From assembly GCA_015490755.1 (NCBI GenBank), contig WFXF01000087.1:57441-121440 (forward strand): a stretch of DNA of 64,000 nt, read 5' to 3'. The translations under genes and the position numbers were made by a program. Positions 9,052 through 23,826 of the stretch are shown here, in pieces (position 1 is the first letter of the stretch; every line of letters begins with the position of its first letter). Below the pieces are notes generated by a model, which worked only from the letters and a program-made list of their open reading frames with translations, made no database searches and was not told where the DNA came from. The stretch comes from Gammaproteobacteria bacterium (GTDB taxonomy: Bacteria; Pseudomonadota; Gammaproteobacteria; JAADGQ01).

Positions 9052-12000
9052 TTAAAAAGCCTGCTGGCTTTGGGGGTAGTGTTCCAAGGCAGAAAAAAAG
9101 CGTTTTTCCAACTGTTTATTAGATTTATACTCCACAAAACCTGTCGAATACCAACTATTTTCAATTTCTTCCAGTGTAGTTTTATTGTCCTTTTTCTCAC
9201 TGCTTTTCATCTCATCAGCCATAATAGCGACTTGGTACTGCATTCGTGCCTGCTTCGCTTCATCAGGTGATTCAACTCCAGCCAAAATTTCCAAACGCAA
9301 ACACAACTCCTCTTTAACCAGCTTATTTGATTGATTATAAGCATTAATTTCAGCAGCAATATCCTCACCATTCTGGTACATTTCAAGGTAGGACATCGTG
9401 TTTTTATAACGCTTCACAATAGCAGTATTAATAGGCGAACTCTGGCTTTCAGTTTCATTCCATTGCCTGTCAATAACTAATATTTTATCAAGTAAATCTG
9501 CCTTTTCGATATTGGTACTCACAACTTCACCCAATAGCTCTTCAAGGTCATTGCATATTTTATGTTTTAATTTTAATTGCTTTTTCTGCTCTTGATACTG
9601 TTTGTTAATATGATTTTTATAGTTTGTTTCAAATTTCTGACATACATCCTCAAAACGTTGAATTGATATCTTAAGATTATTTTTGGGGATATCTCCTATC
9701 TGTTTCCACTTTCCTTTCAGCTCTTTGAATTTCTCGTAGTTTGTTTTGATAGATTCAACATTAGAGTTTACTAACGACTCTATTTCATCACATAAAACTT
9801 CTTTTGCCGTTAAATTATTGAGCTGTTCTTGGTTAATTTCACTATTTTTTGCATCACGACGAGCAAAAAGATCATCACAAATAACTCGTAATTTCTTCCA
9901 CAGCTCTCGATCATCCAGTGCATGCCCTACACATTTCCACTCTGATTGAATTATTTTGATTTTTGAAATAGCTTGTTGAATATCAAGTTTTTCCTCATTC
10001 AGCTCTGCCAAAATCTCTTCAGATTGTTTAATCAACTCTAATTTTTTATTTTTATTTTCCAGTCGATTAGCTTTTGCAGTATTGCGCAACTGATTCATGA
10101 CCTTACGGAAACGACCATTAATCACTTTAAGATATTTACGATCAACAAAGCCCGTTTCACGCCACTCTTTTTGCGCTGTTCGTATGATTTTTTCTGCGGC
10201 AATCCAATCAACATCACCTTGCTCAATCTGGACAGCTTGTAGATCAGCATATTTCTCCAGCCCGTCACAAATGGCCTCTTTCTGTCTTAAGTTTTGTTGG
10301 CGTTGTTGTGATTGAATATCAAAATAATTTTTGCAAGGTTCATAAGCACGACTACAAGCATCATTAAAACGCTCCCAGATTTTTTTATCATCACTTGCTC
10401 CTGTTGTTTTCCACTCATCACGGGCAGCCCTTACTAAACGGGCCACTTCGCCTAAGTCATAATCCGAATTTCCCTGATTTCTTTCAACTTCATCAGCAAG
10501 CTGTTCCATCTCTTGGCAAAGACGCTCTTTAACAGGGTGGCTCGACCAATCATGCCAAGACTGAAGCTCATTCAGCTTCACCACATACTTTTGAAAATGG
10601 TGTGTTTTCTTTTGATTAACAAGTGACTTTAAATTCCGCTCTGGTAATTTTGCCAGTTTTTTCCGTCCCTGATTAACTAAAGCAGCAGCATGACGCACCT
10701 CACCCTTATTCAGTGCCACTCCTATCTCATCTACCAATAACTCAAATGCATGAGCATTCTCTTTATACCTAATTTCTTGTTGTTTAAATTTTTCACGAAG
10801 CTCCAACAAACCTTTTGTTACTGACTCTACAAGTGAATTTTCCAGCTTAAAACCCAGTGGCCTTTTCAGGTCATTCCACCGCCTCTCCAAGCCTTCAATT
10901 TTACGAGAATTTAGATGCTGACTACTATTTTCAATTGATATTTTTTCAAGTAAATCCAGCGCCTTATTTTTTGCCTGTATGTAAAGACCAATTTCTTTCG
11001 AATAAATATTTAATTTTTCACAAGCTTGCTCAAAGCGCAAACTGTAGAGCGCAGTATCTTCTGGCACATTGCTTTGTAGCTCTTTCCATTTTATTTTGGT
11101 TGTATCCAAATACTGCTCAATAAGCTTTAAATCATCAAAATCCGGGGACGAATGTTCAGAGTAGTTTGAAACCATAGCTTCCAAAGTTTCGCACAGCTCA
11201 ATAATCACTGCCCGCATAGGTGCATGCTTAGCTTCATACGCAAGCCTTTCAGACTCTTTTTGGCGTTGGGCAAGAAGTTCCCTGGAGTATTCATTACACA
11301 GCTCTGTGAACCTGTCATCTAACTGTTCATTCCATACCCCATAGTTTCCATCATTCCACTCTGCCTCCAATTTATGCCATGTTGAAAGCAGGGCTTCATA
11401 ACGATAATTTGTTTGCTCCCATTGCCGATTGCTTTTATTAGCACGAATTAACAATGAAAGATCTTTTGCACACTGCTTTGCTTCAGACTTAAGACGCTCG
11501 GGTCGCTCTGCTTCTGCAACTAATACAGCAACACGCTCTTTAGCAATCGTACTTATTTTTTTATCTATTGTACGGCTTTTTTTAGCGACTCTAGCCAAGG
11601 TGGAGCGCTGCGTAATTCGTTCTAATGCAGCCATACGTATCGTAGAACTATTATCATTAATAGCTAGGTCGCCAAGAAATGCCTGACGTTCAATACGATC
11701 AAGTGCTGCTTTTTTTAATTCCAGATTATTATTTGACTTGGCAATATGCTCCAACAACTTTTCATCTGTTGTTTGCTGAACGATTTCGAGGCATTCATCC
11801 AGATCAATATTTGACCCCGTCAATAGTTGTTGAAGCCGTTGGCGAGCAATCAACTTTACTCGATCATCATTATCACTATCCACAATTTTTTGTACGATAC
11901 CAAGTGCGCATAATCTTCGAACAGCCAATATTCGCAATTCACTTTCAATATCATTTTGTACAATTTGAGAGTAAATAGCCTGAGACTCTTTTTTCCCTGG

Positions 12001-12084
12001 AATCAATTCAAGAATCGCTTGTTTACGTACCTCAACTTTTTTGTGCTTCCATTTCGGGGTTAAAAATCGGCTAAATATATTCAT
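9052..12084 (-). CDS. DUF349 repeat protein (1010 aa)
   Basis: All-helical, charged protein with repeated units of about 75 aa that contain 'W...W' and 'LW.RF...CD.FF'-type motifs (for example 'KIWERFNDACSRAYEPCKNYF', 'ELWKKLRVICDDLFARRD'). These are characteristic of DUF349. Confidence 0.75.
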   Translation of the reverse strand: MNIFSRFLTPKWKHKKVEVRKQAILELIPGKKESQAIYSQIVQNDIESELRILAVRRLCALGIVQKIVDSDNDDRVKLIARQRLQQLLTGSNIDLDECLEIVQQTTDEKLLEHIAKSNNNLELKKAALDRIERQAFLGDLAINDNSSTIRMAALERITQRSTLARVAKKSRTIDKKISTIAKERVAVLVAEAERPERLKSEAKQCAKDLSLLIRANKSNRQWEQTNYRYEALLSTWHKLEAEWNDGNYGVWNEQLDDRFTELCNEYSRELLAQRQKESERLAYEAKHAPMRAVIIELCETLEAMVSNYSEHSSPDFDDLKLIEQYLDTTKIKWKELQSNVPEDTALYSLRFEQACEKLNIYSKEIGLYIQAKNKALDLLEKISIENSSQHLNSRKIEGLERRWNDLKRPLGFKLENSLVESVTKGLLELREKFKQQEIRYKENAHAFELLVDEIGVALNKGEVRHAAALVNQGRKKLAKLPERNLKSLVNQKKTHHFQKYVVKLNELQSWHDWSSHPVKERLCQEMEQLADEVERNQGNSDYDLGEVARLVRAARDEWKTTGASDDKKIWERFNDACSRAYEPCKNYFDIQSQQRQQNLRQKEAICDGLEKYADLQAVQIEQGDVDWIAAEKIIRTAQKEWRETGFVDRKYLKVINGRFRKVMNQLRNTAKANRLENKNKKLELIKQSEEILAELNEEKLDIQQAISKIKIIQSEWKCVGHALDDRELWKKLRVICDDLFARRDAKNSEINQEQLNNLTAKEVLCDEIESLVNSNVESIKTNYEKFKELKGKWKQIGDIPKNNLKISIQRFEDVCQKFETNYKNHINKQYQEQKKQLKLKHKICNDLEELLGEVVSTNIEKADLLDKILVIDRQWNETESQSSPINTAIVKRYKNTMSYLEMYQNGEDIAAEINAYNQSNKLVKEELCLRLEILAGVESPDEAKQARMQYQVAIMADEMKSSEKKDNKTTLEEIENSWYSTGFVEYKSNKQLEKRFFSALEHYPQSQQAF

Positions 12085-12178: not shown

Positions 12179-12562
12179 TCAGGAAGAACCATAAAAAATT
12201 ACAAATGCGATAGCATAGTCACCATCATCAGAAATACTGAGCTGTGAATTGCTAATTTTTTTATTCACCATCAGCTGCTTTGCCTGACCATAAAATTGTA
12301 GCAATGGTTTACCATATTGATCATGTGAAACACCGATATGAGATAAAGCAAGCCCATTTCTAAAGCCTGTACCAAATGCTTTTGCTGACGCTTCTTTAAC
12401 GGCAAAGCGTTTAGCTAAAAATCTTGCAGGCAGTATAGCTTGCTCCATATTTGAAAGCTCACAGGGTGTCAGCACACGTTGTGCAAACCTGTCACCAAAA
12501 CGCTTTAATATTTTTTCTATACGCGGAACATAGACAATATCTGTGCCTATTCCATAAATCAC
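12179..12562 (-). CDS. acpS: holo-[acyl-carrier-protein] synthase
   Basis: 127 aa with '[10 protein letters not shown]' at the N-terminus and '[14 protein letters not shown]'. It overlaps pdxJ by 4 bp, the conserved pdxJ-acpS arrangement. Confidence 0.9.
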
Positions 12563-13323
12563 AAGCCACGCGCCTGATACATCAACTGTTTCATCTCTTT
12601 AACCGCACGGGAAAGACCTACAAATAAAGCACGAGCAATAATTGCATGACCAATATTTAATTCAACAATACCTGACAATGCTGCAATTTTAGCAACATTA
12701 TGATAGTTCAAACCATGCCCTGCGTTAACTTGCAAGCCAATCTTTTTCCCGTGTTCAACCGCTTTAATAATACGCTCAAGCTCTTGGCGACGTACTTGCG
12801 GATTACTTGCATCGGCAAAGTGGCCGGTATGAATCTCAATCACAGGCGCACCTACATTAGCTGCTGCGTCAATTTGATCGAGATCTGCATCAATGAATAA
12901 CGAGACACGTACACCTGCTTCCTGCAGTCTGCTGCAAGCATCAGCGATACGTGATGTTTGTCCTGATACATCCAAACCACCTTCTGTAGTGAGCTCCTCG
13001 CGACTCTCGGGAACCAGGCAACAATCTTCAGGTTGAATATGCTCAGCAATGGCAAGCATCTCATCAGTTACCGCCATTTCAAGGTTCATACGTGTCTGCA
13101 AGATTTCTTTAAAAATTTCTACATCACGCTCCTGGATATGGCGACGATCTTCACGCAAGTGCAGAGTAATAACATCTGCCCCAGCTTGCTCTGACTCTAT
13201 CGCAGCCTGAACAGGGTCCGGATATCGAGTCCCCCGGGCTTCACGAAGTGTTGCAACATGATCAATATTAACACCCAACAAAATAGGCAATACTACATTC
13301 ACACAAAATTCCCCGCTATTCAA
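12559..13323 (-). CDS. pdxJ: pyridoxine 5'-phosphate synthase
   Basis: '[16 protein letters not shown]', '[12 protein letters not shown]' and 'EIHTG' motifs. The true start is probably the GTG at 13302, preceded by GGGGAA, rather than the TTG at 13323. Confidence 0.9.
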
Positions 13324-14066
13324 TCAATGAGCGTATCAATCACATCAATCATAAACTCAATCTCTTCCTGCTCAATCTTTTCCCAACATTTAAAGCCAAG
13401 GTCTTGTAATACACCCCCTCCTTTCGAATGGTCCGGCATTGATAGTAACGCATCCTGAATCTCTTCAGCTTTGTGAGCCAAATTCGGCCCTACAAGCAAT
13501 GAATGGTGCAATACTCCAATCTTGCTTCGCATCAACACCCGTAATTTCTTCTGTGTTAACCCAGAAAAGCTATCAAAAACATCCTCTAGAAAGAAACCGA
13601 CATCAGCACTATCTTGTAACAAAGATTTAGCAACAGCTGTATAACTTTTATATTGGCATAACCGAATATTATCAGAGTTCAGATTTGCAGGCTCCAGCAA
13701 AGTCATGCAGATCATGTGGATATCCTGTTCATAAGTTGAAGCAAGTTTAGTTTCCGCTGATAGGTTTTCTATTGTTTGAATATCACTATCGGCAGTCGTT
13801 ACCATTACTGCTTCAACAAATTTCTGACTTGGCACTGCAATCACTTTAAAACCCAGCTGCCGTACTAATTTAGAGACATAACAGGGATTAATATAAATCA
13901 GATCTACTGTATTGTGAAGCAAAGCCTTATGCTGAGCTGTAAAATCGTTATATAGCTCTAGATGAATATTTTCTCCAAGTTTTTTTTGCAGCCACGTATT
14001 AAAAACAAACCAACTTGGCAAATAGCCCGCATTAATATCCGGACTGATAGTAAAAGTGTAAGACAT
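13320..14066 (-). CDS. PhnD-like (phosphonate/phosphate binding-protein fold) protein without a signal peptide
   Basis: '[47 protein letters not shown]' resembles type-2 periplasmic-binding-fold PhnD-like proteins, but there is no hydrophobic leader. The likely start is the ATG at 14066, preceded by GGGAGG. The ORF track extends to 14093. Confidence 0.5.
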
Positions 14067-14123
14067 TGCCCCTCCCATACAACCACAATGCACACTAATG
14101 TAACCTCTGACAATTTATGATAT

Positions 14124-14597
14124 TTAGAGCATTTCAGAGTATAGTTTTATGCACTCCTCAATGCGTTGGCGCGAAGGCTTGCGGCGCACAGAGGTATAGC
14201 CAATGATTACATTATTCCTTATATTTGGTATAACTGTAGCAGAAACCCAGTAATACCCCCCGTCCTTGCGTAAATTTTTCACATAACCATGCCACTTTTT
14301 ACCGGACTTTATTGTATCCCATAAATTTTTAAATGCCGCTTCAGGCATATCCGGGTGGCGCAATATACTATGAGGCTGCCCTATCAACTCCTCCTTGGAG
14401 TAACCTGACATATCTACAAAAGATTGGTTAACATGAGTAATAATCCCGTCAACATCTGTTCTGGACACGATAAGGCACCCATCTGGAAAGGAAGTCTCTA
14501 CATCGTTGACTAAAACACGACAACAACTTCCATCATAATAGGTCAATACAATTTCATGCGAGCCTTTACAAGCTGAAGTTACCTCTTCCAATTTCAA
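14124..14597 (-). CDS. stand-alone Aer-type PAS domain protein (likely FAD-binding redox sensor)
   Basis: 'ITHVNQSFVDMSGYSKEELIGQPHSILRHPDMPEAAFKNLWDTIKSGKKWHGYVKNLRKDGGYYWV' is nearly collinear with the E. coli Aer PAS domain ('ITHANDTFVQVSGYT..ELQGQPHNMVRHPDMPKAAFADMW...'). The start codon is uncertain: the track uses the TTG at 14597. Confidence 0.8.
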   Translation of the reverse strand: MKLEEVTSACKGSHEIVLTYYDGSCCRVLVNDVETSFPDGCLIVSRTDVDGIITHVNQSFVDMSGYSKEELIGQPHSILRHPDMPEAAFKNLWDTIKSGKKWHGYVKNLRKDGGYYWVSATVIPNIRNNVIIGYTSVRRKPSRQRIEECIKLYSEML

Positions 14598-14640: not shown

Positions 14641-14677
14641 AATAAGTACGAAATAACTTAAGCATTTCGTACTTATT
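14641..14677 (-). terminator. 14-bp perfect stem-loop immediately after the roadblock gene stop
   Basis: AATAAGTACGAAAT (14641-14654) pairs with ATTTCGTACTTATT (14664-14677) across a 9-nt loop. On the minus strand a GGTTTTTG run follows a few nt later. It may be an intrinsic terminator or an RNA-stability element between the GTPase operon and the PAS gene. Confidence 0.4.
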
Positions 14678-14678
14678 C

Positions 14679-15059
14679 CTAAAGTAATTTAGTAATATTC
14701 TCAGCAGCTCTTTTCACATCAAGAAAAATCAGGCCTAACCTGGCATTTGGTTTGGCGAGTACAGATAAAACTGCATCTTCCCCCGAATGAGTCATCAAAA
14801 CATAGCCTTGATTACCTTTTATCATGACTTGCTCCAGACTACCACGTGCCAGCTCTTGAGCGGTACGATCACCTAAAGAGAGCATTGCCGCTGACATTGC
14901 TCCAACCCGATCTTCATCCATGCCACTCGGTAATAATGCAGCAATCATTAAACCATCGGTAGAGATGACAGCTGAGGCCTCAATATCGGCAGAAGTTCCA
15001 TTTAAATCGCTGAGAATTGATGAAATCATTTCTTCACGCATTATTTTTATACTCCTCAA
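14679..15059 (-). CDS. roadblock/LC7 (MglB-like) domain protein
   Basis: About 120 aa. 'IEASAVISTDGLMIAALLPSGMDEDRVGAMSAAMLSLGDRTAQEL...GYVLM' is the canonical roadblock/LC7 pattern. Confidence 0.8.
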   Translation of the reverse strand: MRSIKIMREEMISSILSDLNGTSADIEASAVISTDGLMIAALLPSGMDEDRVGAMSAAMLSLGDRTAQELARGSLEQVMIKGNQGYVLMTHSGEDAVLSVLAKPNARLGLIFLDVKRAAENITKLL

Positions 15060-15080
15060 ACCATTCCTGTGTTGTAAAAA

Positions 15081-15731
15081 TTATTCTGAACCTACTTGTG
15101 CATAGCGTCGCCCCAGCAACCAAACTAAATCAACAAAAGAAGATTGATTTAAATTGGGCAAACCAGATAAAACTAACACAAAGCGACTTGAGCCAATATA
15201 AATAGGCCAAAACCCTAACTGACTATTGCCTGCGGCATCAACCAAACCCCACGCAGACATTGTAATACTTAGATTATTTTTCAATAACCCATTGTGGCGT
15301 TCATGTAATTTGGCTAAATCGGCACTGAGCGCTGAGACTTCTTCAGCAGCTTCATGAGGGAAACCATGTGTTGCAAGATAAAAACCTTCACTATCAGCGA
15401 GCAGTGCTTTGCCATTTATGGTGAGTGCCTCTAATAATTGAGGCACCTCTTCTTCGAGGGTACCGGAAGGAGCGTCCCTGGAGACCACACTACCTTGAAT
15501 CCAACCCAGATTTTGCATTCGATAAATAAGGTCCAATACATCATCTCCACTTTCATCAAATCCCCATGAGCGTAATTTATCCAAAGCAAAAGGCTGGGTG
15601 TTTCTTTGAATTAGCAGGTGAAATAATAACTTGCGCGCTACATCATCTGTCTGACTGGAAACAGCATAATATGCGCCGGCTGGAGTGGGCGTAATAAATC
15701 GATTGTCTACTATTTGGTAGCTTGACATCAT
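15081..15731 (-). CDS. hypothetical protein; C-terminal half resembles a divergent roadblock/longin-type domain
   Basis: 216 aa. 'LLEALTINGKALLADSEGFYLATHGFPHEAAEEVSALSADLAKL' mirrors the roadblock pattern of the neighbouring gene. The N-terminal region ('VLDLIYRMQNLGWIQ') could be a winged helix. The start overlaps the GTPase stop by 4 bp. Confidence 0.4.
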   Translation of the reverse strand: MMSSYQIVDNRFITPTPAGAYYAVSSQTDDVARKLLFHLLIQRNTQPFALDKLRSWGFDESGDDVLDLIYRMQNLGWIQGSVVSRDAPSGTLEEEVPQLLEALTINGKALLADSEGFYLATHGFPHEAAEEVSALSADLAKLHERHNGLLKNNLSITMSAWGLVDAAGNSQLGFWPIYIGSSRFVLVLSGLPNLNQSSFVDLVWLLGRRYAQVGSE

Positions 15732-16264
15732 CCACCCAATCCAGGATCAAGTGAATAAAGCAGCGCCTGCACCATGATTGAAACATCATCGCGTTGACGT
15801 GCATCAACAGAAAATACGGGCACTTTTAAATTTATTTTTTGCAATTGGGTATGATAATCGTCAATACGTGGATGTGATGCCAAATCCATCCTTGTCACAC
15901 CAATGACGACTTTTGTCCGGTCAATAAAATCTTTAAATGAACTCATAAAGAAATGCAAGTCCTGAAAAGGGTCGGTGCGTGTATTATCGAGCAACATAAC
16001 CAAGCCTAAACCGCCTTCACTGAGAATGTCCCACATAAAGTTGAATCGCTCTTGACCGGGCGTACCATAAAGGTGAATACGTTCATCACCGTCAAGCTTC
16101 ATCACTCCATAGTCCATCGCAACTGTTGTAGTTGGCTTCAAATCTTTTGTCATATCGCTGGCCTGCTCATCCGTCGTAACAGGAGGAACATCACTCAATG
16201 CTGCAATTGCTGTACTTTTACCCGCACCTACTGGGCCCGTGAATATAATCTTATAATTGCTCAT
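15728..16264 (-). CDS. small Ras-superfamily GTPase of the MglA/CvnD (COG2229-like) type
   Basis: 178 aa. G1 is 'GPVGAGKST', the G2 region is 'TTVAMDYG' and G3 is 'YGTPGQERF'. G4 is atypical ('GVTRMD' rather than NKxD). G5-like is 'SVDA'. Confidence 0.8.
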   Translation of the reverse strand: MSNYKIIFTGPVGAGKSTAIAALSDVPPVTTDEQASDMTKDLKPTTTVAMDYGVMKLDGDERIHLYGTPGQERFNFMWDILSEGGLGLVMLLDNTRTDPFQDLHFFMSSFKDFIDRTKVVIGVTRMDLASHPRIDDYHTQLQKINLKVPVFSVDARQRDDVSIMVQALLYSLDPGLGG

Positions 16265-16328
16265 CTGATACCTAAAAAGTATTTTTTTACCATCATGCTG
16301 GATGATATTTTTATCAATCTTCAGTTAT

Positions 16329-17498
16329 TCAAGCCGACCTTTTAATGTGACTCAAAATTCGCTTGAATAAACCACGGTGTTGATGCTTTTTAACAGGAAC
16401 AGGTTTTGACATCTTGCCTTCTACAGGACGCACAGCAGTATCTAGCAAACCAATAGCATGAGCAGCTGTATAAAAAGAAAAAACATGCTGAACAGGGACT
16501 TTAAGAACTTTTGCGACCAATAAAGGCGGATGTGGCATATCATTCCATAAGGATGCTATGCGCAAGGCATCCGGCATCATCATTAAACGTGTAAAGTTTG
16601 GCCATTGTTTTAAAGATGTGGGAGCTTTTACCTGAGTGCCTATTGGTACCCGACCATTTGATGTCCAGATCGCAATTTTCCATATAAAAGACTCCAGAGA
16701 TTGCTTTCGGGAACCTGCATCTATATCATCTGACTTTATGTGTGTAAATGGGCGAATATTGACAGCCTTGTCCAATTTAACAGAACACAAAGATTTAAGC
16801 TCATCATCTGTCATACAAGTAACAACTTCTGAACTTTGCGGCAACAAGGTAATGGGTTTAACCCCCCCCGCCAATTGATCTTCAATTCTGACTGGCTTGT
16901 TACTGGAGACTGCTCGACTACGTGCTTGAAGCAAATACCCTAAAAGCAGGTCAGAAGCATCAAAATAAGCTGATTTACCTCTGTTATTTCCAAAAAACTC
17001 ATCATCTTTGGTGATATTATTTCTTTCAACGGTTTCCAGTATTTTTGTTGCTGCACGTGTCCCCGTTGTTTTTTTTGCTGCTCTTACTTCTTTTCTGGCT
17101 TTTATTTCAGGTAAAGCTGGTGGGGTCACACTGGCACTTTCAGGAGAGGTTTGAGTACGAAGAGACTCGGTTTTGCTACCCTTCAGGCTGGCAAGCGCAT
17201 CTAGCAATTTATCAATACGCATTGGTTTCTGTACAAAAACAAACTCGGAGTCACCTTGTTGTTTTAGTTCTGGGCACTTTATCGCAATCAGGATGGTAGG
17301 TAATGATGGGTGACGTTCCCGATATTTTATTAATAACTCTTCAGCCCCCAAACTGTCCATATTGATAATTGCAGCCTCAGCCAAAGCTTCTTCAACCAAC
17401 TCATACTGACCATTCCCTGGACCTGAAAAGACCATTCGAAGCATTTCACGCGAACGCTGATCAACGCCAAATGCAACTATTTTAATCGGTGAAGTCAA
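16329..17498 (-). CDS. receiver-like domain protein with a Pro/Ser/Lys-rich linker and an uncharacterised C-terminal domain
   Basis: The N-terminal ~120 aa fit a CheY-like pattern: 'KIVAFGVDQ', 'AAIINMDSLG' (candidate acceptor Asp) and 'FVQKPM' (KP motif). A low-complexity stretch follows ('TQTSPESASVTPPALPEIKARKEVRAAKK'), then an unrecognised domain of about 200 aa. Confidence 0.45.
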   Translation of the reverse strand: MTSPIKIVAFGVDQRSREMLRMVFSGPGNGQYELVEEALAEAAIINMDSLGAEELLIKYRERHPSLPTILIAIKCPELKQQGDSEFVFVQKPMRIDKLLDALASLKGSKTESLRTQTSPESASVTPPALPEIKARKEVRAAKKTTGTRAATKILETVERNNITKDDEFFGNNRGKSAYFDASDLLLGYLLQARSRAVSSNKPVRIEDQLAGGVKPITLLPQSSEVVTCMTDDELKSLCSVKLDKAVNIRPFTHIKSDDIDAGSRKQSLESFIWKIAIWTSNGRVPIGTQVKAPTSLKQWPNFTRLMMMPDALRIASLWNDMPHPPLLVAKVLKVPVQHVFSFYTAAHAIGLLDTAVRPVEGKMSKPVPVKKHQHRGLFKRILSHIKRSA

Positions 17499-18226
17499 TT
17501 TAACACCCCACTTTCCTCAAAAGATACGCTCAAACTTTTCCATTCGTCAATTGCTGCTAATGGTCTACGACCAATTTTAACAAACATTTCGTTAAATGCA
17601 TCTTTGTTCTGTGTATGCTTGTAAATTTCCAACAGCTCTACATTAAGAGCCTCATTACCACGGTCAAGTAACAAGCTTGACTCCAGAAGCTTCCTCCCTT
17701 CATCAATCATTCCGGAATCGACAAGATCCCGAGCTTCGTCCAGTGGCGATCTAATTTCCATATCATCTATTGAGCACTTATACACAAGAGGGCTTGCTCC
17801 TACAAAGCTACCACTTAACATAGAATAAGGTGTATACGGCAATAACTCATCAGAAGTTATACCCCGCTCCAATACACCTAAAAGTCGAGCATAACGTGTC
17901 CGCCCAATAGCCTTGGCGACCATTTTTAACATTCGCTGTCGTATTGCAAAGCCCTTATTCCCCAGCACAATAAACAGATCCAGTAACGCTCCGTAAACTG
18001 CATCCGCATTTCGAAATCTTGAGTAAACAATGATTCGTTGAATATGGCTCTCCAGATCGGCAACCTGTCGAACAATTTTATGTGCCAGATAGTTTGAAAC
18101 TCGAACACCTAATGCTTTGTCACCATCAACGATGTCCAACTTTGAAAGGAAGGCCGGCTCGATTAATGCGCTATCCGCCATATCTCTAACAGGCGTCTCT
18201 TTTTGAATCAACAATACACTATCCAT
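17495..18226 (-). CDS. hypothetical protein (helical, TPR-like C-terminus)
   Basis: 243-aa ORF and first gene of the cluster. Its stop overlaps the next start by 4 bp. No family was recognised. Confidence 0.5.
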   Translation of the reverse strand: MDSVLLIQKETPVRDMADSALIEPAFLSKLDIVDGDKALGVRVSNYLAHKIVRQVADLESHIQRIIVYSRFRNADAVYGALLDLFIVLGNKGFAIRQRMLKMVAKAIGRTRYARLLGVLERGITSDELLPYTPYSMLSGSFVGASPLVYKCSIDDMEIRSPLDEARDLVDSGMIDEGRKLLESSLLLDRGNEALNVELLEIYKHTQNKDAFNEMFVKIGRRPLAAIDEWKSLSVSFEESGVLN

Positions 18227-18330: not shown

Positions 18331-18750
18331 TTAAACGATCTTATTACACTGCTCACATATACCGTAGATATTCAGGCAGTGATCAGTCACAGTATAACCT
18401 GACTGTTTCGCAATTTCGCGTTGTCGTTGTTCGATTACATCATCAAAAAACTCATCCACTCTACCGCATTTCACACAAACAATATGATCATGATGCTCCC
18501 CATCATCCAGCTCATAGACTGAATGCCCACCTTCAAAATGATGCCTGACAACCAAATCCGCACTTTCAAACTGAGCCAGCACCCGGTAAATTGTTGCCAG
18601 CCCAATTTCCCCACCTTCTCGCATAAGCTCCCTGTAAATACCTTCAGCACTCATATGCCTTGCTTGATTGCGCTCTAGTATTTCAAGTATTTTGATTCTT
18701 GGTAATGTTGCTTTAAGACCCGCTTTTTTCAATTCGCCATTATCGACCAT
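18331..18750 (-). CDS. fur: ferric uptake regulator Fur
   Basis: 139 aa with 'LKKAGLKATLPRIKILEIL', 'HHDH' and the 'CVKCGRV...CEQC' zinc motifs. Confidence 0.9.
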   Translation of the reverse strand: MVDNGELKKAGLKATLPRIKILEILERNQARHMSAEGIYRELMREGGEIGLATIYRVLAQFESADLVVRHHFEGGHSVYELDDGEHHDHIVCVKCGRVDEFFDDVIEQRQREIAKQSGYTVTDHCLNIYGICEQCNKIV

Positions 18751-20739: not shown

Positions 20740-23700
20740 ATGTACGAATCATTCTATCGCTTAAGTACAAAACCATTTGGTTTAAACCCTGATCCCGACT
20801 TTATATTCACACGCCGCGGTCATGAATTAGCGATGGCACACTTACGCTACGGCATTAGCCAGAGTACCGGTTTTGTTGTTATTACAGGCGCACCAGGCAC
20901 GGGCAAAACAACACTTGCACGTGTTCTACTTAAAGAACTTGCCAACAATACCACTATTGTTGTTGCACACTTACCCAGCACACACCTTGCTGCTGATGAT
21001 CTATTACGTGTTGTCGCAGATTCATTTGGCCTTAAATACGAAGGGCTGTCCAAACCAGAAATCTTAAAGTTACTTAATAATTTTTTACTGACTTGTGTGC
21101 GTGAACGAAAACGTACACTGCTGGTTATAGATGAAGCGCAAAATTTACCCGCTTGTGCATTTGAAGAGTTACGTTTGCTCGCTAATCTAAGATTAGGTGC
21201 AAAAGCACTGTTGCAAACAATTCTTTTGGGGCAAGAGCAATTTCGCCAGATGCTAGGCTCTCAGGAATTCAGCCAGATTATGCAGCGTGTGGTTGCCAAC
21301 TATCATCTCGTACCTTTAACACTCGAAGAGACTCAAGCCTATATTGAAAGTCGCCTGATTCATGCAAACTGGCAAGGTAATCCACACTTTTCTGACGAAG
21401 CAATTTACTGCATACACGAACATACTGAAGGTATTCCACGCCGCATCAATAAATTTTGCGAACGGCTACTGCTGTATGGTTATCTTGAAGAACGAACGGA
21501 GATTTCACAAGACATTGTCCAGGTTGTCATTAACGAGTTCCAGCAAGAGACTCCCGTTTCACAACGCCGGCCTGAAGATATAGAGATAGACGAAATTGCT
21601 CAAACAGAACCGCTTTCTGTTCCGTATGAAATAGAAAATGAGATCGCTGAAGCGACACAAACCAATAGTTCAGATGAACATAAAGAGATTGAAGGTTCAT
21701 TGATTGATTTTTCAATCAATTCTGAAAATAGTAATGCAGAAACTATCTCATCCACACAGGAAAAAATCGAAAGCACTCCACCTGTTACTGAAAAAATTAA
21801 CCAAAATAGAGGCTCACACTCATTAGAATCACCACCACTCATTGAAACCAGTAATGATGTTGATAAACTAAAAGAAAAAAAAGAACCTGCTGAAAATATA
21901 CATTCTGTTTCAGAAATATTTTCTCTTATACCTCAAGAGCAGGAAAAAACAGAGGATAAAAATGAATCTGCTCCTCAGGAACTTTCTGCAGAAGAGACTC
22001 AAAACACAGACAAATCCGAACAAAAACAAGAGCGGATTATTGAGGCAGAACAAGAAGCTTTGGCTGCTATAGAAGCTGAAAACTCAAACCTGAAAAGTGA
22101 TATTGGAGAACTAGAAGAGAGTACAGCGATCGCAATGGCTCACTCCTCGCAATTGTCCTCCAATGTAAGTGAGGTGCCTGCGGCTAATAGAACAAAATTT
22201 CGTGTTATTGATGGCGGCAAAGATAGTCGATCAACATCTCAACCCATAAACAGCAATCTGCAACAATCCTCCACCAACAAAGATATTGAACACAAACTTC
22301 TGAAACTTGTTCTTGCTTTTCAACTTTCCCCCAAACATTTCGAATACCTGACAGACCCGGAACAACCTTCTCCAGAAAATGCAGGACGATTATTAGAACT
22401 TGCAACAACTGATAACACTACAATTGCAACAGCGCTTCCCCAATCACTGCGGGGAATCTCTCAGCAAAATTTACAAACAGCAATCAACTTCTATATATGG
22501 GAAGTGATACTAAAACCTGGTGGCAATGATTACAGAACTCTTGGCTTGCAAGAAAATGCCCCCATCAGTGAAATAAAGACCCATTACCAAAATTTGAGGT
22601 TATTTCTAAACAATCAAAAAGCAGACCATGAAAACGGGATTGAATATATATCACGCATAGAAAAAGCATATACAAATCTAACAAATGAAGCTGAAATTGA
22701 AAATAATTTTCTAGAACTACCAACAACGCCTGGGCCAAAGCAAAAAAGTCGGGCTGAAATTGATCGCATTGAAGAGGCTTATGAAATTCTTAGTGAAGAA
22801 ACAATAGACTCCACAGAGATACTCGAACCACCATTCAAAAAATCGGGTTCTAATGGCCAATCAACTACATATACAAAGTATTTAATTTTTGGGCTCATTG
22901 CTACAGCAATTGGAGTCACTGTTTACAAGACACAATTTACCACCAATGAAAGTGAGCACCTCACTACTGAAATAGAACCTACAAATAAACAACCAGAAAA
23001 AGCAGTTATTTTTGGTGCAAAAAATAATAGTTCAGAAGTCATTGATGAACCCATTATCAATAATACAGATATATACCAGCATGACCCAAATACAGATATA
23101 GCATCGACAGAAAGTACTGTAGAAACAGAGTCTGATAATTTCACATTACTTGATGGCGACGACCCTTGGGCTGAATATTCAGAGATTTCAGAAAAAATAG
23201 CTCAAGCTCCAAGTGAGCCCCCCCCCTCTGAAGATTCCTTTATTGTTGAGCAGCCAATAATTACGCCTGAGCCTGTCGCATCAACCTTGCAAAAAGAGAT
23301 CACAACGACTCCCGAGGTAATACAGACCTCAAAACCAGACATAGTTGAAAATCAACCAATAGCTGTTGCAACACCAAAAGCTCTACCTATAGCAACGCTC
23401 TATTCAGACAGAGTTACGACAAAGGCCGTAACACCAGCACCTGATAATAATATCGAAAAACTGGATCTGATTAACTTAATCAATAATTTTACAACGGCCT
23501 ATGAGCAGGGTGATATTAATCAATTCATGAAGCTGTTTTCAATTGATGCGACAAGTTTTGATGGTACAACTCAAACCGACCGCAATGGTATTGAAGCTGA
23601 CTATATTGATCTTTTTCAAACAACTACCGCAAGACAAATTGCTATCAAAAATATTGCATGGAATACTAACCACAACACATCCGAAGGTATCAGTGACTTT

Positions 23701-23826
23701 GTTGTTACTGTGAAAAGTATTGACAACGACCAACTTGAATTTATATCTGGCATTATTACACTTGAGGTAGAAAAAAATCAGCAAAATGTATTTATTACAA
23801 GATTGACATACCAGGTCACTGAATAA
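20740..23826 (+). CDS. ExeA/MshM-like AAA+ ATPase fused to a long acidic disordered region, a J-like segment, one TM helix and a C-terminal NTF2/SnoaL-like domain
   Basis: The N-terminus 'YESFYRLSTKPFGLNPDPDFIFTRRGHELA...VVITGAPGTGKTTL...LLVIDEAQNL' is ExeA/GspA-like. Residues ~270-590 are Glu/Ser/Asn-rich. 'DYRTLGLQENAPISEIKTHYQNLRLFL...IEKAYTNL' is J-domain-like but lacks HPD. The TM helix is 'YLIFGLIATAIGVTVY'. The C-terminus 'LINNFTTAYEQGDINQFMKLFS...' is NTF2-like. Confidence 0.7.
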   Translation: MYESFYRLSTKPFGLNPDPDFIFTRRGHELAMAHLRYGISQSTGFVVITGAPGTGKTTLARVLLKELANNTTIVVAHLPSTHLAADDLLRVVADSFGLKYEGLSKPEILKLLNNFLLTCVRERKRTLLVIDEAQNLPACAFEELRLLANLRLGAKALLQTILLGQEQFRQMLGSQEFSQIMQRVVANYHLVPLTLEETQAYIESRLIHANWQGNPHFSDEAIYCIHEHTEGIPRRINKFCERLLLYGYLEERTEISQDIVQVVINEFQQETPVSQRRPEDIEIDEIAQTEPLSVPYEIENEIAEATQTNSSDEHKEIEGSLIDFSINSENSNAETISSTQEKIESTPPVTEKINQNRGSHSLESPPLIETSNDVDKLKEKKEPAENIHSVSEIFSLIPQEQEKTEDKNESAPQELSAEETQNTDKSEQKQERIIEAEQEALAAIEAENSNLKSDIGELEESTAIAMAHSSQLSSNVSEVPAANRTKFRVIDGGKDSRSTSQPINSNLQQSSTNKDIEHKLLKLVLAFQLSPKHFEYLTDPEQPSPENAGRLLELATTDNTTIATALPQSLRGISQQNLQTAINFYIWEVILKPGGNDYRTLGLQENAPISEIKTHYQNLRLFLNNQKADHENGIEYISRIEKAYTNLTNEAEIENNFLELPTTPGPKQKSRAEIDRIEEAYEILSEETIDSTEILEPPFKKSGSNGQSTTYTKYLIFGLIATAIGVTVYKTQFTTNESEHLTTEIEPTNKQPEKAVIFGAKNNSSEVIDEPIINNTDIYQHDPNTDIASTESTVETESDNFTLLDGDDPWAEYSEISEKIAQAPSEPPPSEDSFIVEQPIITPEPVASTLQKEITTTPEVIQTSKPDIVENQPIAVATPKALPIATLYSDRVTTKAVTPAPDNNIEKLDLINLINNFTTAYEQGDINQFMKLFSIDATSFDGTTQTDRNGIEADYIDLFQTTTARQIAIKNIAWNTNHNTSEGISDFVVTVKSIDNDQLEFISGIITLEVEKNQQNVFITRLTYQVTE

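Follow-up and report, generated by a model that had tools for sequence, protein, structure and literature searches.

The 64-kb stretch of the gammaproteobacterial contig WFXF01000087.1 analysed here (the window) contains a block of five genes at 14679-18226 which very probably encodes a Group 3 MglA system, a module built around a small Ras-like GTPase. Open reading frames (ORFs) were listed over 12-22 kb of the window. The listing reproduced the five co-directional minus-strand frames given in a preliminary description of this DNA, in the order p243, p389, GTPase, p216 and roadblock gene, which is also the order of transcription. Both overlaps of 4 bp reported there can be read in the sequence: TTGA at 17495-17498 combines the p243 stop codon TGA with the p389 start codon TTG, and ATGA at 15728-15731 forms the junction of the GTPase and p216 genes. 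The gap of 64 bp between the p389 and GTPase genes is also correct. A gap of 21 bp had been given for the junction of p216 and the roadblock gene, but this holds only for a start at TTG 15059. The most likely start of the roadblock gene is ATG 15041, leaving 39 bp, because a GGAG Shine-Dalgarno sequence is found at 15055-15052 upstream of this ATG and nearly all homologues have a length of 120 aa.

The block is flanked on one side by fur (18331-18750; Pfam FUR 2e-43, NCBIfam Fur equivalog 1.9e-55), which belongs to a housekeeping group fur-bamE-smpB, and on the other side by genes for a PAS protein and a PhnD-like protein, followed by pdxJ and acpS. The GC content is even across the region (0.39-0.42), and therefore gives no sign of a foreign island. 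The five ORFs are not a product of chance, since most of the 80 loci compared in other species have these genes in the same order. No transmembrane segment or kinase domain was found in the seven proteins (the five core proteins, the PAS protein and the PhnD-like protein) or in the flanking genes of the window; the absence of a kinase agrees with the earlier statement that the cluster lacks a CvnA-type kinase.

Table 1. Features of the gene cluster in the window and number of loci, among the 80 compared, in which each core gene was found (pLDDT, predicted local distance difference test; HMM, hidden Markov model).
Feature	Position	Strand	Description	Basis	Loci of 80
p243	17495..18226	-	243-aa all-helical protein	ORF listing	59, plus 9 long Neisseria forms found by HMM
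p389	16329..17498	-	389-aa receiver-linker-C-terminal-domain protein		75
p389, residues 1-110	17169..17498	-	receiver (CheY-like) domain	AlphaFold2, Foldseek	
p389, residues 111-168	16995..17168	-	disordered linker rich in Pro, Ser, Thr and Lys	pLDDT 31-42	
p389, residues 178-267	16698..16967	-	small alpha/beta domain, predicted alpha-beta-beta-beta-alpha-beta-beta	pLDDT mostly 78-94	
p389, residues 268-389	16332..16697	-	winged-helix domain and C-terminal amphipathic helix; candidate remote DUF742 homologue		
GTPase	15728..16264	-	178 aa, MglA family (Group 3), CvnD-like	Pfam, hhalign, motifs	80
p216	15081..15731	-	conserved N-terminal domain and divergent roadblock/LC7-like domain		71
p216, residues 1-87	15471..15731	-	conserved N-terminal domain, PTPAGAYYAVS ... 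LELLYRxQxLGWxQG	alignment	
p216, residues 88-216	15084..15470	-	divergent roadblock/LC7-like domain, putative second MglB homologue	Pfam, PDB profile, hhalign	
Roadblock protein (Robl126)	14679..15041	-	120 aa, canonical roadblock/LC7, MglB/CvnB-like	Pfam, PDB, hhalign	68
Hairpin and U-run	14641..14677	-	15-bp stem	terminator scan, RNAfold	
Aer-type PAS protein	14124..14597	-	157 aa, stand-alone	PDB 8dik, Pfam PAS_3	
PhnD-like protein	13320..14093	-	periplasmic-binding-protein fold; likely start Met near 14066	Pfam Phosphonate-bd 6e-35	

A scan with the GTPase, using one genome per species, revealed 219 relatives. The best 80 loci, with GTPases 59-90% identical to that of the window, were kept for comparison. 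They originate from Methylococcales, Thiodiazotropha, Chromatiaceae, Sedimenticolaceae, Leucothrix, Rhodocyclaceae, Burkholderiales and nine Neisseria species. Gene order was followed by tblastn and then with family HMMs, and the component counts were obtained by blast clustering of the ORFs. A survey of gene neighbourhoods had been proposed in the preliminary description; it shows the order p243-p389-GTPase-p216-roadblock in about 70 of the 80 loci, including those of Methylomonas, Thiodiazotropha and Neisseria. Many of the component absences are contig ends. The genes for p389 and the GTPase form a pair in 75 loci, even where roadblock genes are missing nearby. All nine Neisseria loci have the same gene order, with a GTPase identity of 60-63%, and the closest relative is a metagenome-assembled genome (MAG; locus L001) whose proteins are 72-95% identical to those of the window.

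The GTPase had been assigned to the MglA/CvnD class of P-loop GTPases from its GPVGAGKS and YGTPGQERF motifs and its deviant G4, an assignment borne out by the motifs of 65 homologues, by Pfam and by hhalign. The protein carries GPVGAGKS (G1), TTVAMDYG (switch I), GTPGQ (G3), GVTRMD (G4) and DAR (G5), with Thr in G3 where Asp is usual. Across the 65 family members GPVGAGK(T/S), TTVAMDYG, GVTxMD and VDAR are near-invariant and LYGTPGQERF is invariant. Both VDAR and the deviant G4, which is devoid of the Lys of [NT]KxD, are kept across the family and are common to CvnD. In Pfam the protein matches ATP_bind_1 (PF03029) above the cutoff (5.9e-14) and Ras (4e-7). The comparison of its family with ten CvnD sequences gave 99.9% (1e-37) in hhalign, and the CvnD proteins show 35-37% identity (tblastn, 1e-17 to 1e-23). 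MglA of Thermus was matched with an E-value of 4.3e-5. At residue 42 the window protein differs from its family: the switch I threonines are preceded by Arg-Lys in the consensus (RK..TTVAMDYG) but by Leu-Lys in the window. Group 1 MglA has an intrinsic arginine finger; should the family Arg serve as one too, the window GTPase would be without it.

Group 3 MglA systems are listed in a computational catalogue of 2014 (Wuichet and Søgaard-Andersen; PMC4316618). The MglA clade consists of single-domain small GTPases of less than 240 aa, in which G3 is without the usual Asp (TxxGQ). Group 3 was described as almost exclusive to beta- and gammaproteobacteria, including Neisseria, Stenotrophomonas and Xanthomonas. 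Its GTPase has a G4 that departs from [NT]KxD and a DAR G5 shared with the conservon Group 2, and it is coupled to one or two MglB (roadblock/LC7) genes. For an adjacent, conserved protein listed as unknown, Phyre2 predicted a receiver-like N-terminal part that is joined by a variable linker to a winged-helix-like C-terminus (PMC4316618). The window cluster resembles these systems in its GTPase clade, as judged by the identity and synteny of the Neisseria loci, in the deviant G4, the DAR G5 and the Thr in G3, in the architecture of p389, and in the combination of one GTPase gene with two roadblock genes. Nothing contradicts membership. Thus, the locus is an ordinary instance of a widely conserved and catalogued class, to whose published description we add p243, a DUF742-like signal in p389 as a candidate exchange factor, and frequent stand-alone sensor genes.

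The earlier view of an undescribed system is not upheld by these data. In addition to the catalogue, some genetic data exist for Neisseriaceae. Besides one mglA, the Group 3 system of Snodgrassella comprises three mglB genes, two of them coupled and one an orphan (PMC11112851). A G78R exchange in the orphan MglB improved colonisation of a non-native bee host and altered spreading on soft agar, and all three mglB genes were beneficial in public transposon sequencing data re-analysed by the same authors (PMC11112851). Beyond the catalogue and this genetic work, no mechanistic study of a Group 3 orthologue was found in the literature. As to whether an orthologous operon had already been characterised, the operon class is described but not characterised.

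The last gene of the core encodes a canonical roadblock/LC7 protein, as had been stated for the longer frame from 15059. It matches Robl_LC7 in Pfam (9.5e-16) and the roadblock structures 7f8m (1.9e-26) and CvnB5 (1.9e-9) in the PDB. Its family (Robl126) was aligned with CvnB at 98.7% (3e-16) by hhalign. A third, orphan roadblock gene, as present in Snodgrassella, was not found within the 64-kb window.

The second roadblock-like protein, p216, was analysed with an alignment of 45 homologues. Its C-terminal half had been described as a second, divergent roadblock/longin-type domain. In the window protein, Robl_LC7 is matched below threshold at residues 108-151 (1.2e-3). Among the 45 family members 35 match Robl_LC7, with a best value of 1.9e-5, and 13 match LAMTOR5. 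The family profile found CvnB5 (3leq) as its best match in the PDB (E=0.06), with the roadblock protein Rv3364c in third place. The hhalign comparison with CvnB gave 33-39% (P 3-5e-4) over alpha1-beta1-beta2-alpha2, and at low stringency the two are co-linear across the whole domain, with one hairpin inserted. Because these signals coincide with the published classification of two MglB proteins, we accept residues ~88-216 as a putative divergent roadblock domain. The earlier assignment thus stands in its substance, with matches that lie below the curated thresholds. The N-terminal domain (residues 1-87) appears winged-helix-like by eye; hhalign shows no likeness of this domain to DUF742, the p389 C-terminus or p243.

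An AlphaFold2 model of p389, made from an alignment of 52 homologues, has a mean pLDDT of 78. In the receiver domain, the pLDDT is ~90. With Foldseek, nearly all of the top ~45 PDB matches are receiver domains, the first being 4dad (7.4e-4), followed by PorX, FleR, CheY and FrzS. All nine PDB matches of the family profile are receiver domains as well and place D48 on the acceptor Asp. Asp48 is found in 66 of 67 sequences, Lys91 and Pro92 in all 67, and Ser72 in 56, the window protein having Ala at this position. The CheY-like receiver pattern and the Pro/Ser/Lys-rich linker noted in the preliminary description are therefore both confirmed; in the homologue alignment the linker is heavily gapped and variable in length and composition. 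The small domain that follows was considered as a possible roadblock/longin fold and rejected at the sequence level, with hhalign values of 0.1-0.4% against three roadblock profiles; values against CvnB and DUF742 profiles fall in the same range. Conservation within the protein is highest in the C-terminal domain (WKxAxWTSxGRxP ... WPNFTRL ... ALRIAxL). This domain is modelled as a three-helix winged-helix unit at 294-354 (helices 311-320, 325-332 and 336-348, with flanking strands), followed by a helix at 375-388. The whole protein has no match in Pfam or NCBIfam. Two deviations in the family were observed: the homologue from Pseudaquabacterium (L033, 5994-7946) has 650 aa instead of the usual ~400, and one MAG (L076, 473-979) has an additional fragment of the p389 C-terminus upstream of p243.

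As the GTPase looked CvnD-like and DUF742 proteins precede cvnD, ten conservons were taken from actinobacterial plasmids for profile comparison. The p389 C-terminus aligned with their ten DUF742 proteins at 80.7% (hhalign, P=1.3e-5) over 74 columns, which span the region from the first helix of the winged helix to the terminal helix. The controls (p216, p243, the receiver and middle domains of p389, and the N-terminal domain of p216) gave 0.1-0.5% and were not significant. Searches with hmmsearch were co-linear in both directions, with E-values of 1.9e-5 in a set of 67 sequences and 2.6e-4 in one of 10. Run at low stringency, hhalign extends the alignment back to WTSxGRxP, within one residue of the TxGRT motif of DUF742. 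Overall, the last ~85-120 residues of p389 align with DUF742/CvnC. The coding sequence of the domain directly precedes the GTPase gene, in the same way as cvnC precedes cvnD. A resemblance of the Group 3 receiver protein to DUF742 was not found in the literature searched. Homology of the p389 C-terminus to DUF742 is likely from these comparisons, though not established, and the earlier statement that the cluster lacks DUF742 is probably wrong. The C-terminal helix has a high hydrophobic moment and aligns with the C-terminal helix of DUF742; its role as a membrane-targeting sequence is unproven.

The product of the first gene, p243, had been called unrecognisable, and it matches no model of Pfam or NCBIfam. 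The AlphaFold2 model (pLDDT 78) is all-alpha, and in Foldseek it found generic tetratricopeptide repeat (TPR) or helical-repeat matches only, with E-values of at least 0.27. An N-terminal helical domain (residues ~37-117) carries the motifs DLxSHxQRI and YGALLDLFxVLGxKGxxLRxRML. It is followed by a disordered stretch (142-157) and by two C-terminal TPR-like repeats in the last ~75 residues (~161-238), where the family profile matches TPR proteins of the PDB. The similarity to the C-terminal TPR of FimV is marginal (E about 0.1), NCBIfam being silent. Iterated searches for homologues yielded 54 sequences, and an exhaustive profile search 427 representative clusters at E<=1e-30. Nearly all members have ~240 aa, and the longer ones contain no informative fused domains. 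The gene keeps to the cluster even where its position has moved (L047, L059 and L069): in Sedimenticola it follows the PhnD-like gene, and in one Pseudomonadales MAG it separates the GTPase gene from that of p216. In Neisseria, p243 corresponds to the C-terminal half of a protein of 472-485 aa with an N-terminal transmembrane helix and an extra region of ~240 residues (for example L063, 5454-6872, in Neisseria lactamica, and L073, L075, L078 and L080). Judging from this helix, the system may be tethered to the inner membrane, at least in Neisseria. We consider p243 to be the constant fifth member of the system, which was not found in the literature searched.

Downstream of the five-gene core, the 157-aa PAS protein matches the PAS domain of the aerotaxis receptor Aer (8dik, 2.9e-36) and full-length Aer (8.6e-35) in the PDB, and PAS_3 in Pfam (1.4e-18). 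It is likely to be an FAD-binding redox sensor. The PhnD-like protein has neither a signal peptide nor a hydrophobic segment, its homologues have 247-255 aa, and its gene is always paired with the PAS gene. The pair is located after the roadblock gene in about 31 of the 80 loci and in the cultured Methylomonas sp. MK1. A stand-alone protoglobin (PF11563, 1e-19) occurs in or after the cluster in about 18 loci, and a stand-alone CZB domain (PF13682, 3e-13) in about 10. PAS domains of the Aer type, HemAT-type globins and CZB domains are cytoplasmic sensor modules typical of chemoreceptors, which respond to oxygen, redox state and oxidants. Since genes of these three kinds are attached to the cluster, oxygen or redox state is suggested as its input. 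Frequent stand-alone sensor genes beside Group 3 clusters are not found in the literature searched. The cluster had been described as a self-contained five-gene module. This is right insofar as the five-gene core is conserved across species, but in many genomes, including that of the window, the core is part of a larger unit.

Several details of the sensor genes were observed in individual loci. In Thiodiazotropha and Sedimenticolaceae, protoglobin and CZB genes replace the PAS/PhnD-like pair or are added to it; they lie between p216 and the roadblock gene or after the latter (a protoglobin of 187 aa in L040, 4123-4686; a CZB protein of 121 aa in L031, 6070-6435). At 12559-14093 (minus strand) of the window, no space is left between the accessory pair and the housekeeping genes next to it, as the PhnD-like stop codon overlaps the annotated start of pdxJ and pdxJ in turn overlaps acpS. 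The roadblock gene of L001, the closest relative, has pdxJ as its next gene. Just upstream of the cluster, two Sedimenticola loci (L059, 495-4604; L069, 508-4572) encode a hybrid histidine kinase of 1369 aa with PhnD-like, three PAS, HisKA, HATPase, REC and Hpt domains, that is, with the same two sensor types as the stand-alone genes. This kinase is a possible phosphodonor for the p389 receiver. A hybrid kinase with Hpt was found near the cluster only in Sedimenticola loci. In Methylomonas sp. MK1 (L092, 13126-16566; GCA_000365425.1), a gene of the histidine phosphatase family and a class I adenylate cyclase gene come next after the seven genes of the cluster and share their strand, which hints at a possible cAMP connection.

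The conservons of actinobacteria (CvnA-D; MfpE-D-C-B in Mycobacterium) are the described systems with which the cluster shares a CvnD-type GTPase (ATP_bind_1, GTPGQ and DAR), a CvnB-type roadblock protein and probably a CvnC/DUF742-like domain. It can be regarded as a proteobacterial sister of the conservon. In Mycobacterium, the DUF742 protein MfpC is the guanine nucleotide exchange factor (GEF) and the roadblock protein MfpD the GTPase-activating protein (GAP) of the conservon GTPase MfpB (PMC11343762). All conservon loci fetched encode a membrane-bound, sensor-kinase-like protein (CvnA/MfpE), which the window cluster does not have. Instead, p389 has a cytoplasmic receiver fused to the DUF742-like part by a linker and an extra alpha/beta domain. 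The cluster further differs in its second, divergent roadblock protein with an N-terminal extension and in its helical/TPR protein. In G4, the Group 3 family has GVTxMD and the conservons (A/G)VNxF, and the curated DUF742 model does not recognise the domain of p389.

We propose that the module is wired as follows. The 178-aa GTPase would be the switch. The 120-aa roadblock protein is most likely its GAP, by analogy with MglB acting on MglA and MfpD on MfpB, and would probably act together with, or be modulated by, the roadblock-like domain of p216. Loading of the GTPase is most likely a task of p389, whose DUF742-like C-terminal domain would serve as exchange factor by analogy with MfpC. Its receiver would gate the exchange through the flexible linker, either by phosphorylation of Asp48 or by protein contacts, in a way comparable to RomR with MglA. 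As a constant partner, p243 is most plausibly an adaptor or effector. The small sensor proteins (Aer-type PAS and PhnD-like, protoglobin or CZB) would, where present, report oxygen or redox state. Nothing that would represent the output is encoded in the cluster. The data show the gene set, the folds and families of its products, their conservation and the placement in Group 3. With identity and mechanism taken together, we moderately favour the reading of the locus as a Group 3 MglA switch module wired in this manner. The roles assigned to the GAP, the GEF, the gate, the redox input and p243 are, taken by themselves, put forward tentatively and are somewhat closer to doubtful than to probable. 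The most far-reaching version is a complete kinase-less 'proteobacterial conservon', in which redox sensors feed a receiver-gated GEF of the DUF742 type, the roadblock pair resets the switch and p243 serves as adaptor or effector; this version is possible but rather doubtful.

Several observations weigh against this wiring. No measured binding, GAP or GEF activity was found in the literature for any Group 3 protein, and the core cluster encodes no kinase. In the receiver of p389, the metal-binding acidic pair after beta1 is degenerate and reduced to one variably kept Asp: position 12 is hydrophobic, and D13 is present in 39 of 67 sequences (49 of 52 in a set rich in Methylococcales). From its residues the domain may be a pseudo-receiver, and its phosphorylation is possible, not assured. 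The curated DUF742 model of Pfam matched none of the 52 p389 members and none of three consensus sequences, and both this model and the REC model were silent on these sequences and on the best-scoring member. The link to DUF742 comes from profile-profile and small-database searches, with controls from p216, p243 and the other domains of p389, and a generic likeness of winged helices may contribute to it. The Pfam, PDB and CvnB comparisons behind the roadblock assignment of p216 are all below threshold, and hhalign gave 0.7-0.8% between p216 and the Robl126 family, two roadblock-type proteins without detectable kinship. The sensor genes are absent from many loci, including L001 and those of Neisseria. 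Directly after the stop codon of the roadblock gene, moreover, the window contains a perfect 15-bp-stem hairpin (-20.5 kcal/mol, RNAfold) with a U-run, which may act as a terminator or attenuator and set the PAS/PhnD-like pair apart from the five-gene core. The pair may therefore belong to a separate or attenuated transcription unit. In 32 other loci the 70 nt after this stop codon have a median of -14 kcal/mol, and the hairpin is not obviously conserved.

To our knowledge, only two bacterial settings are well understood in which Ras-like GTPases work with GAPs and GEFs of their own, the polarity of Myxococcus and the conservons of mycobacteria and Streptomyces. Group 3 is widespread, as indicated by the 219 species-level GTPase matches, which include the genus Neisseria and cultured methanotrophs. 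If p389 carries an exchange factor of the DUF742 type, the studied systems and Group 3 would share an ancestral core of GTPase, roadblock and DUF742 proteins with interchangeable input modules, and this core would be an immediately testable biochemical model. The attached oxygen and redox sensor domains suggest which signal to test. A kinase-less module of the proposed kind, if true, would represent a third kind of bacterial sensory pathway on a Ras-like switch, found in methanotrophs, sulfur-oxidising symbionts and Neisseria. With p243, a sizeable family that has no model in Pfam or NCBIfam now has a firm genomic context.

A module of the Myxococcus type would offer another explanation, in which the GTPase sets where and when type IV pili or another polar machine is active, p389 is a polar scaffold like RomR, and p243 is a TPR effector like SgmX. 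In Myxococcus xanthus (Group 1), MglB is the GAP and RomR-RomX the GEF of MglA (PMC11343762, PMC4316618); the TPR protein SgmX is reported to be an MglA effector. The architectures match, as both systems have a GTPase with Thr in G3, a roadblock GAP or candidate GAP with a second roadblock paralogue (MglC in Myxococcus), a receiver protein with a flexible linker, which is Pro-rich in RomR and active in nucleotide exchange, and a TPR protein. The altered soft-agar spreading and gut colonisation of the Snodgrassella G78R strain, the benefit of the three mglB genes and the N-terminal membrane anchor of the Neisseria p243 homologue fit this explanation as well. However, the Snodgrassella evidence is indirect, and the orphan gene has no counterpart in the window. 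What p389 shares with RomR is the architecture of receiver, flexible linker and C-terminal domain; RomR ends in an acidic tail and its exchange factor RomX is a separate protein. In its sequence the GTPase is nearer to CvnD than to Group 1 MglA, which has a canonical G4 instead of GVTRMD. No pilus, motility, gliding or Frz genes were found in the cluster, in the neighbour families that recur across the 80 loci or among the annotated immediate neighbours, most ORFs of the 64 kb being unannotated; the preliminary description had likewise seen no obvious tie to gliding or type IV pilus genes. A polar function of this kind is considered rather improbable.

Slightly less probable still, and unlikely, is that p389 acts as an atypical response regulator whose winged helix binds DNA under modulation by the GTPase and the roadblock proteins, so that the output is gene expression and not nucleotide exchange. 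This was proposed by Wuichet and Søgaard-Andersen from the prediction of a receiver and a winged helix (PMC4316618), and a predicted DNA-binding domain in DUF742 was also remarked on by the authors of the MfpC study (PMC11343762). The modelled three-helix unit and weak Pfam matches of p389 family members to HTH_20, MarR_2 and Dimerisation are in line with it. On the other hand, no DNA-binding family reached significance for p389, and its winged helix aligns best with DUF742, for which GEF activity is the sole activity demonstrated. The disordered linker and the alpha/beta domain between receiver and winged helix are also unlike regulators of the OmpR or NarL type. The two functions of p389, transcription factor and exchange factor, are not mutually exclusive, and both could hold.

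It is highly improbable that the cluster is a Fur- or iron-coupled operon, with its five genes transcribed together with fur upstream or under its control and devoted to iron homeostasis. In favour of it, all genes are on the same strand and, as had been noted before, a terminator scan found no terminator-like site in the 104-bp gap between fur and p243, so that read-through from fur is possible. However, of the 80 loci compared, a single MAG (L001, 90% identical) shares with the window the position next to fur. Elsewhere the neighbours are unrelated; in Methylomonas, for example, they include a two-component system and argininosuccinate lyase. The gap contains no Fur box with up to three mismatches, its promoter-like matches are at chance level, and the genes flanking the cluster on both sides are housekeeping genes. 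The coupling to iron suggested earlier is thus not supported. The sole Fur-box-like match in the window, GATAGTGATAATGATGATC at 11862-11880 (minus strand; three mismatches), lies within the gene of a 1010-aa DUF349 repeat protein (9052-12084) rather than in a promoter; one or more matches of this kind turned up in 4 of 100 shuffles. Further upstream of the cluster, on the plus strand (20740-23826), the window encodes a 1028-aa protein with an N-terminal AAA_22/STAND-like P-loop domain, a weak DnaJ-like stretch (residues ~598-652) and long low-complexity regions rich in acidic residues, Ser and Thr.

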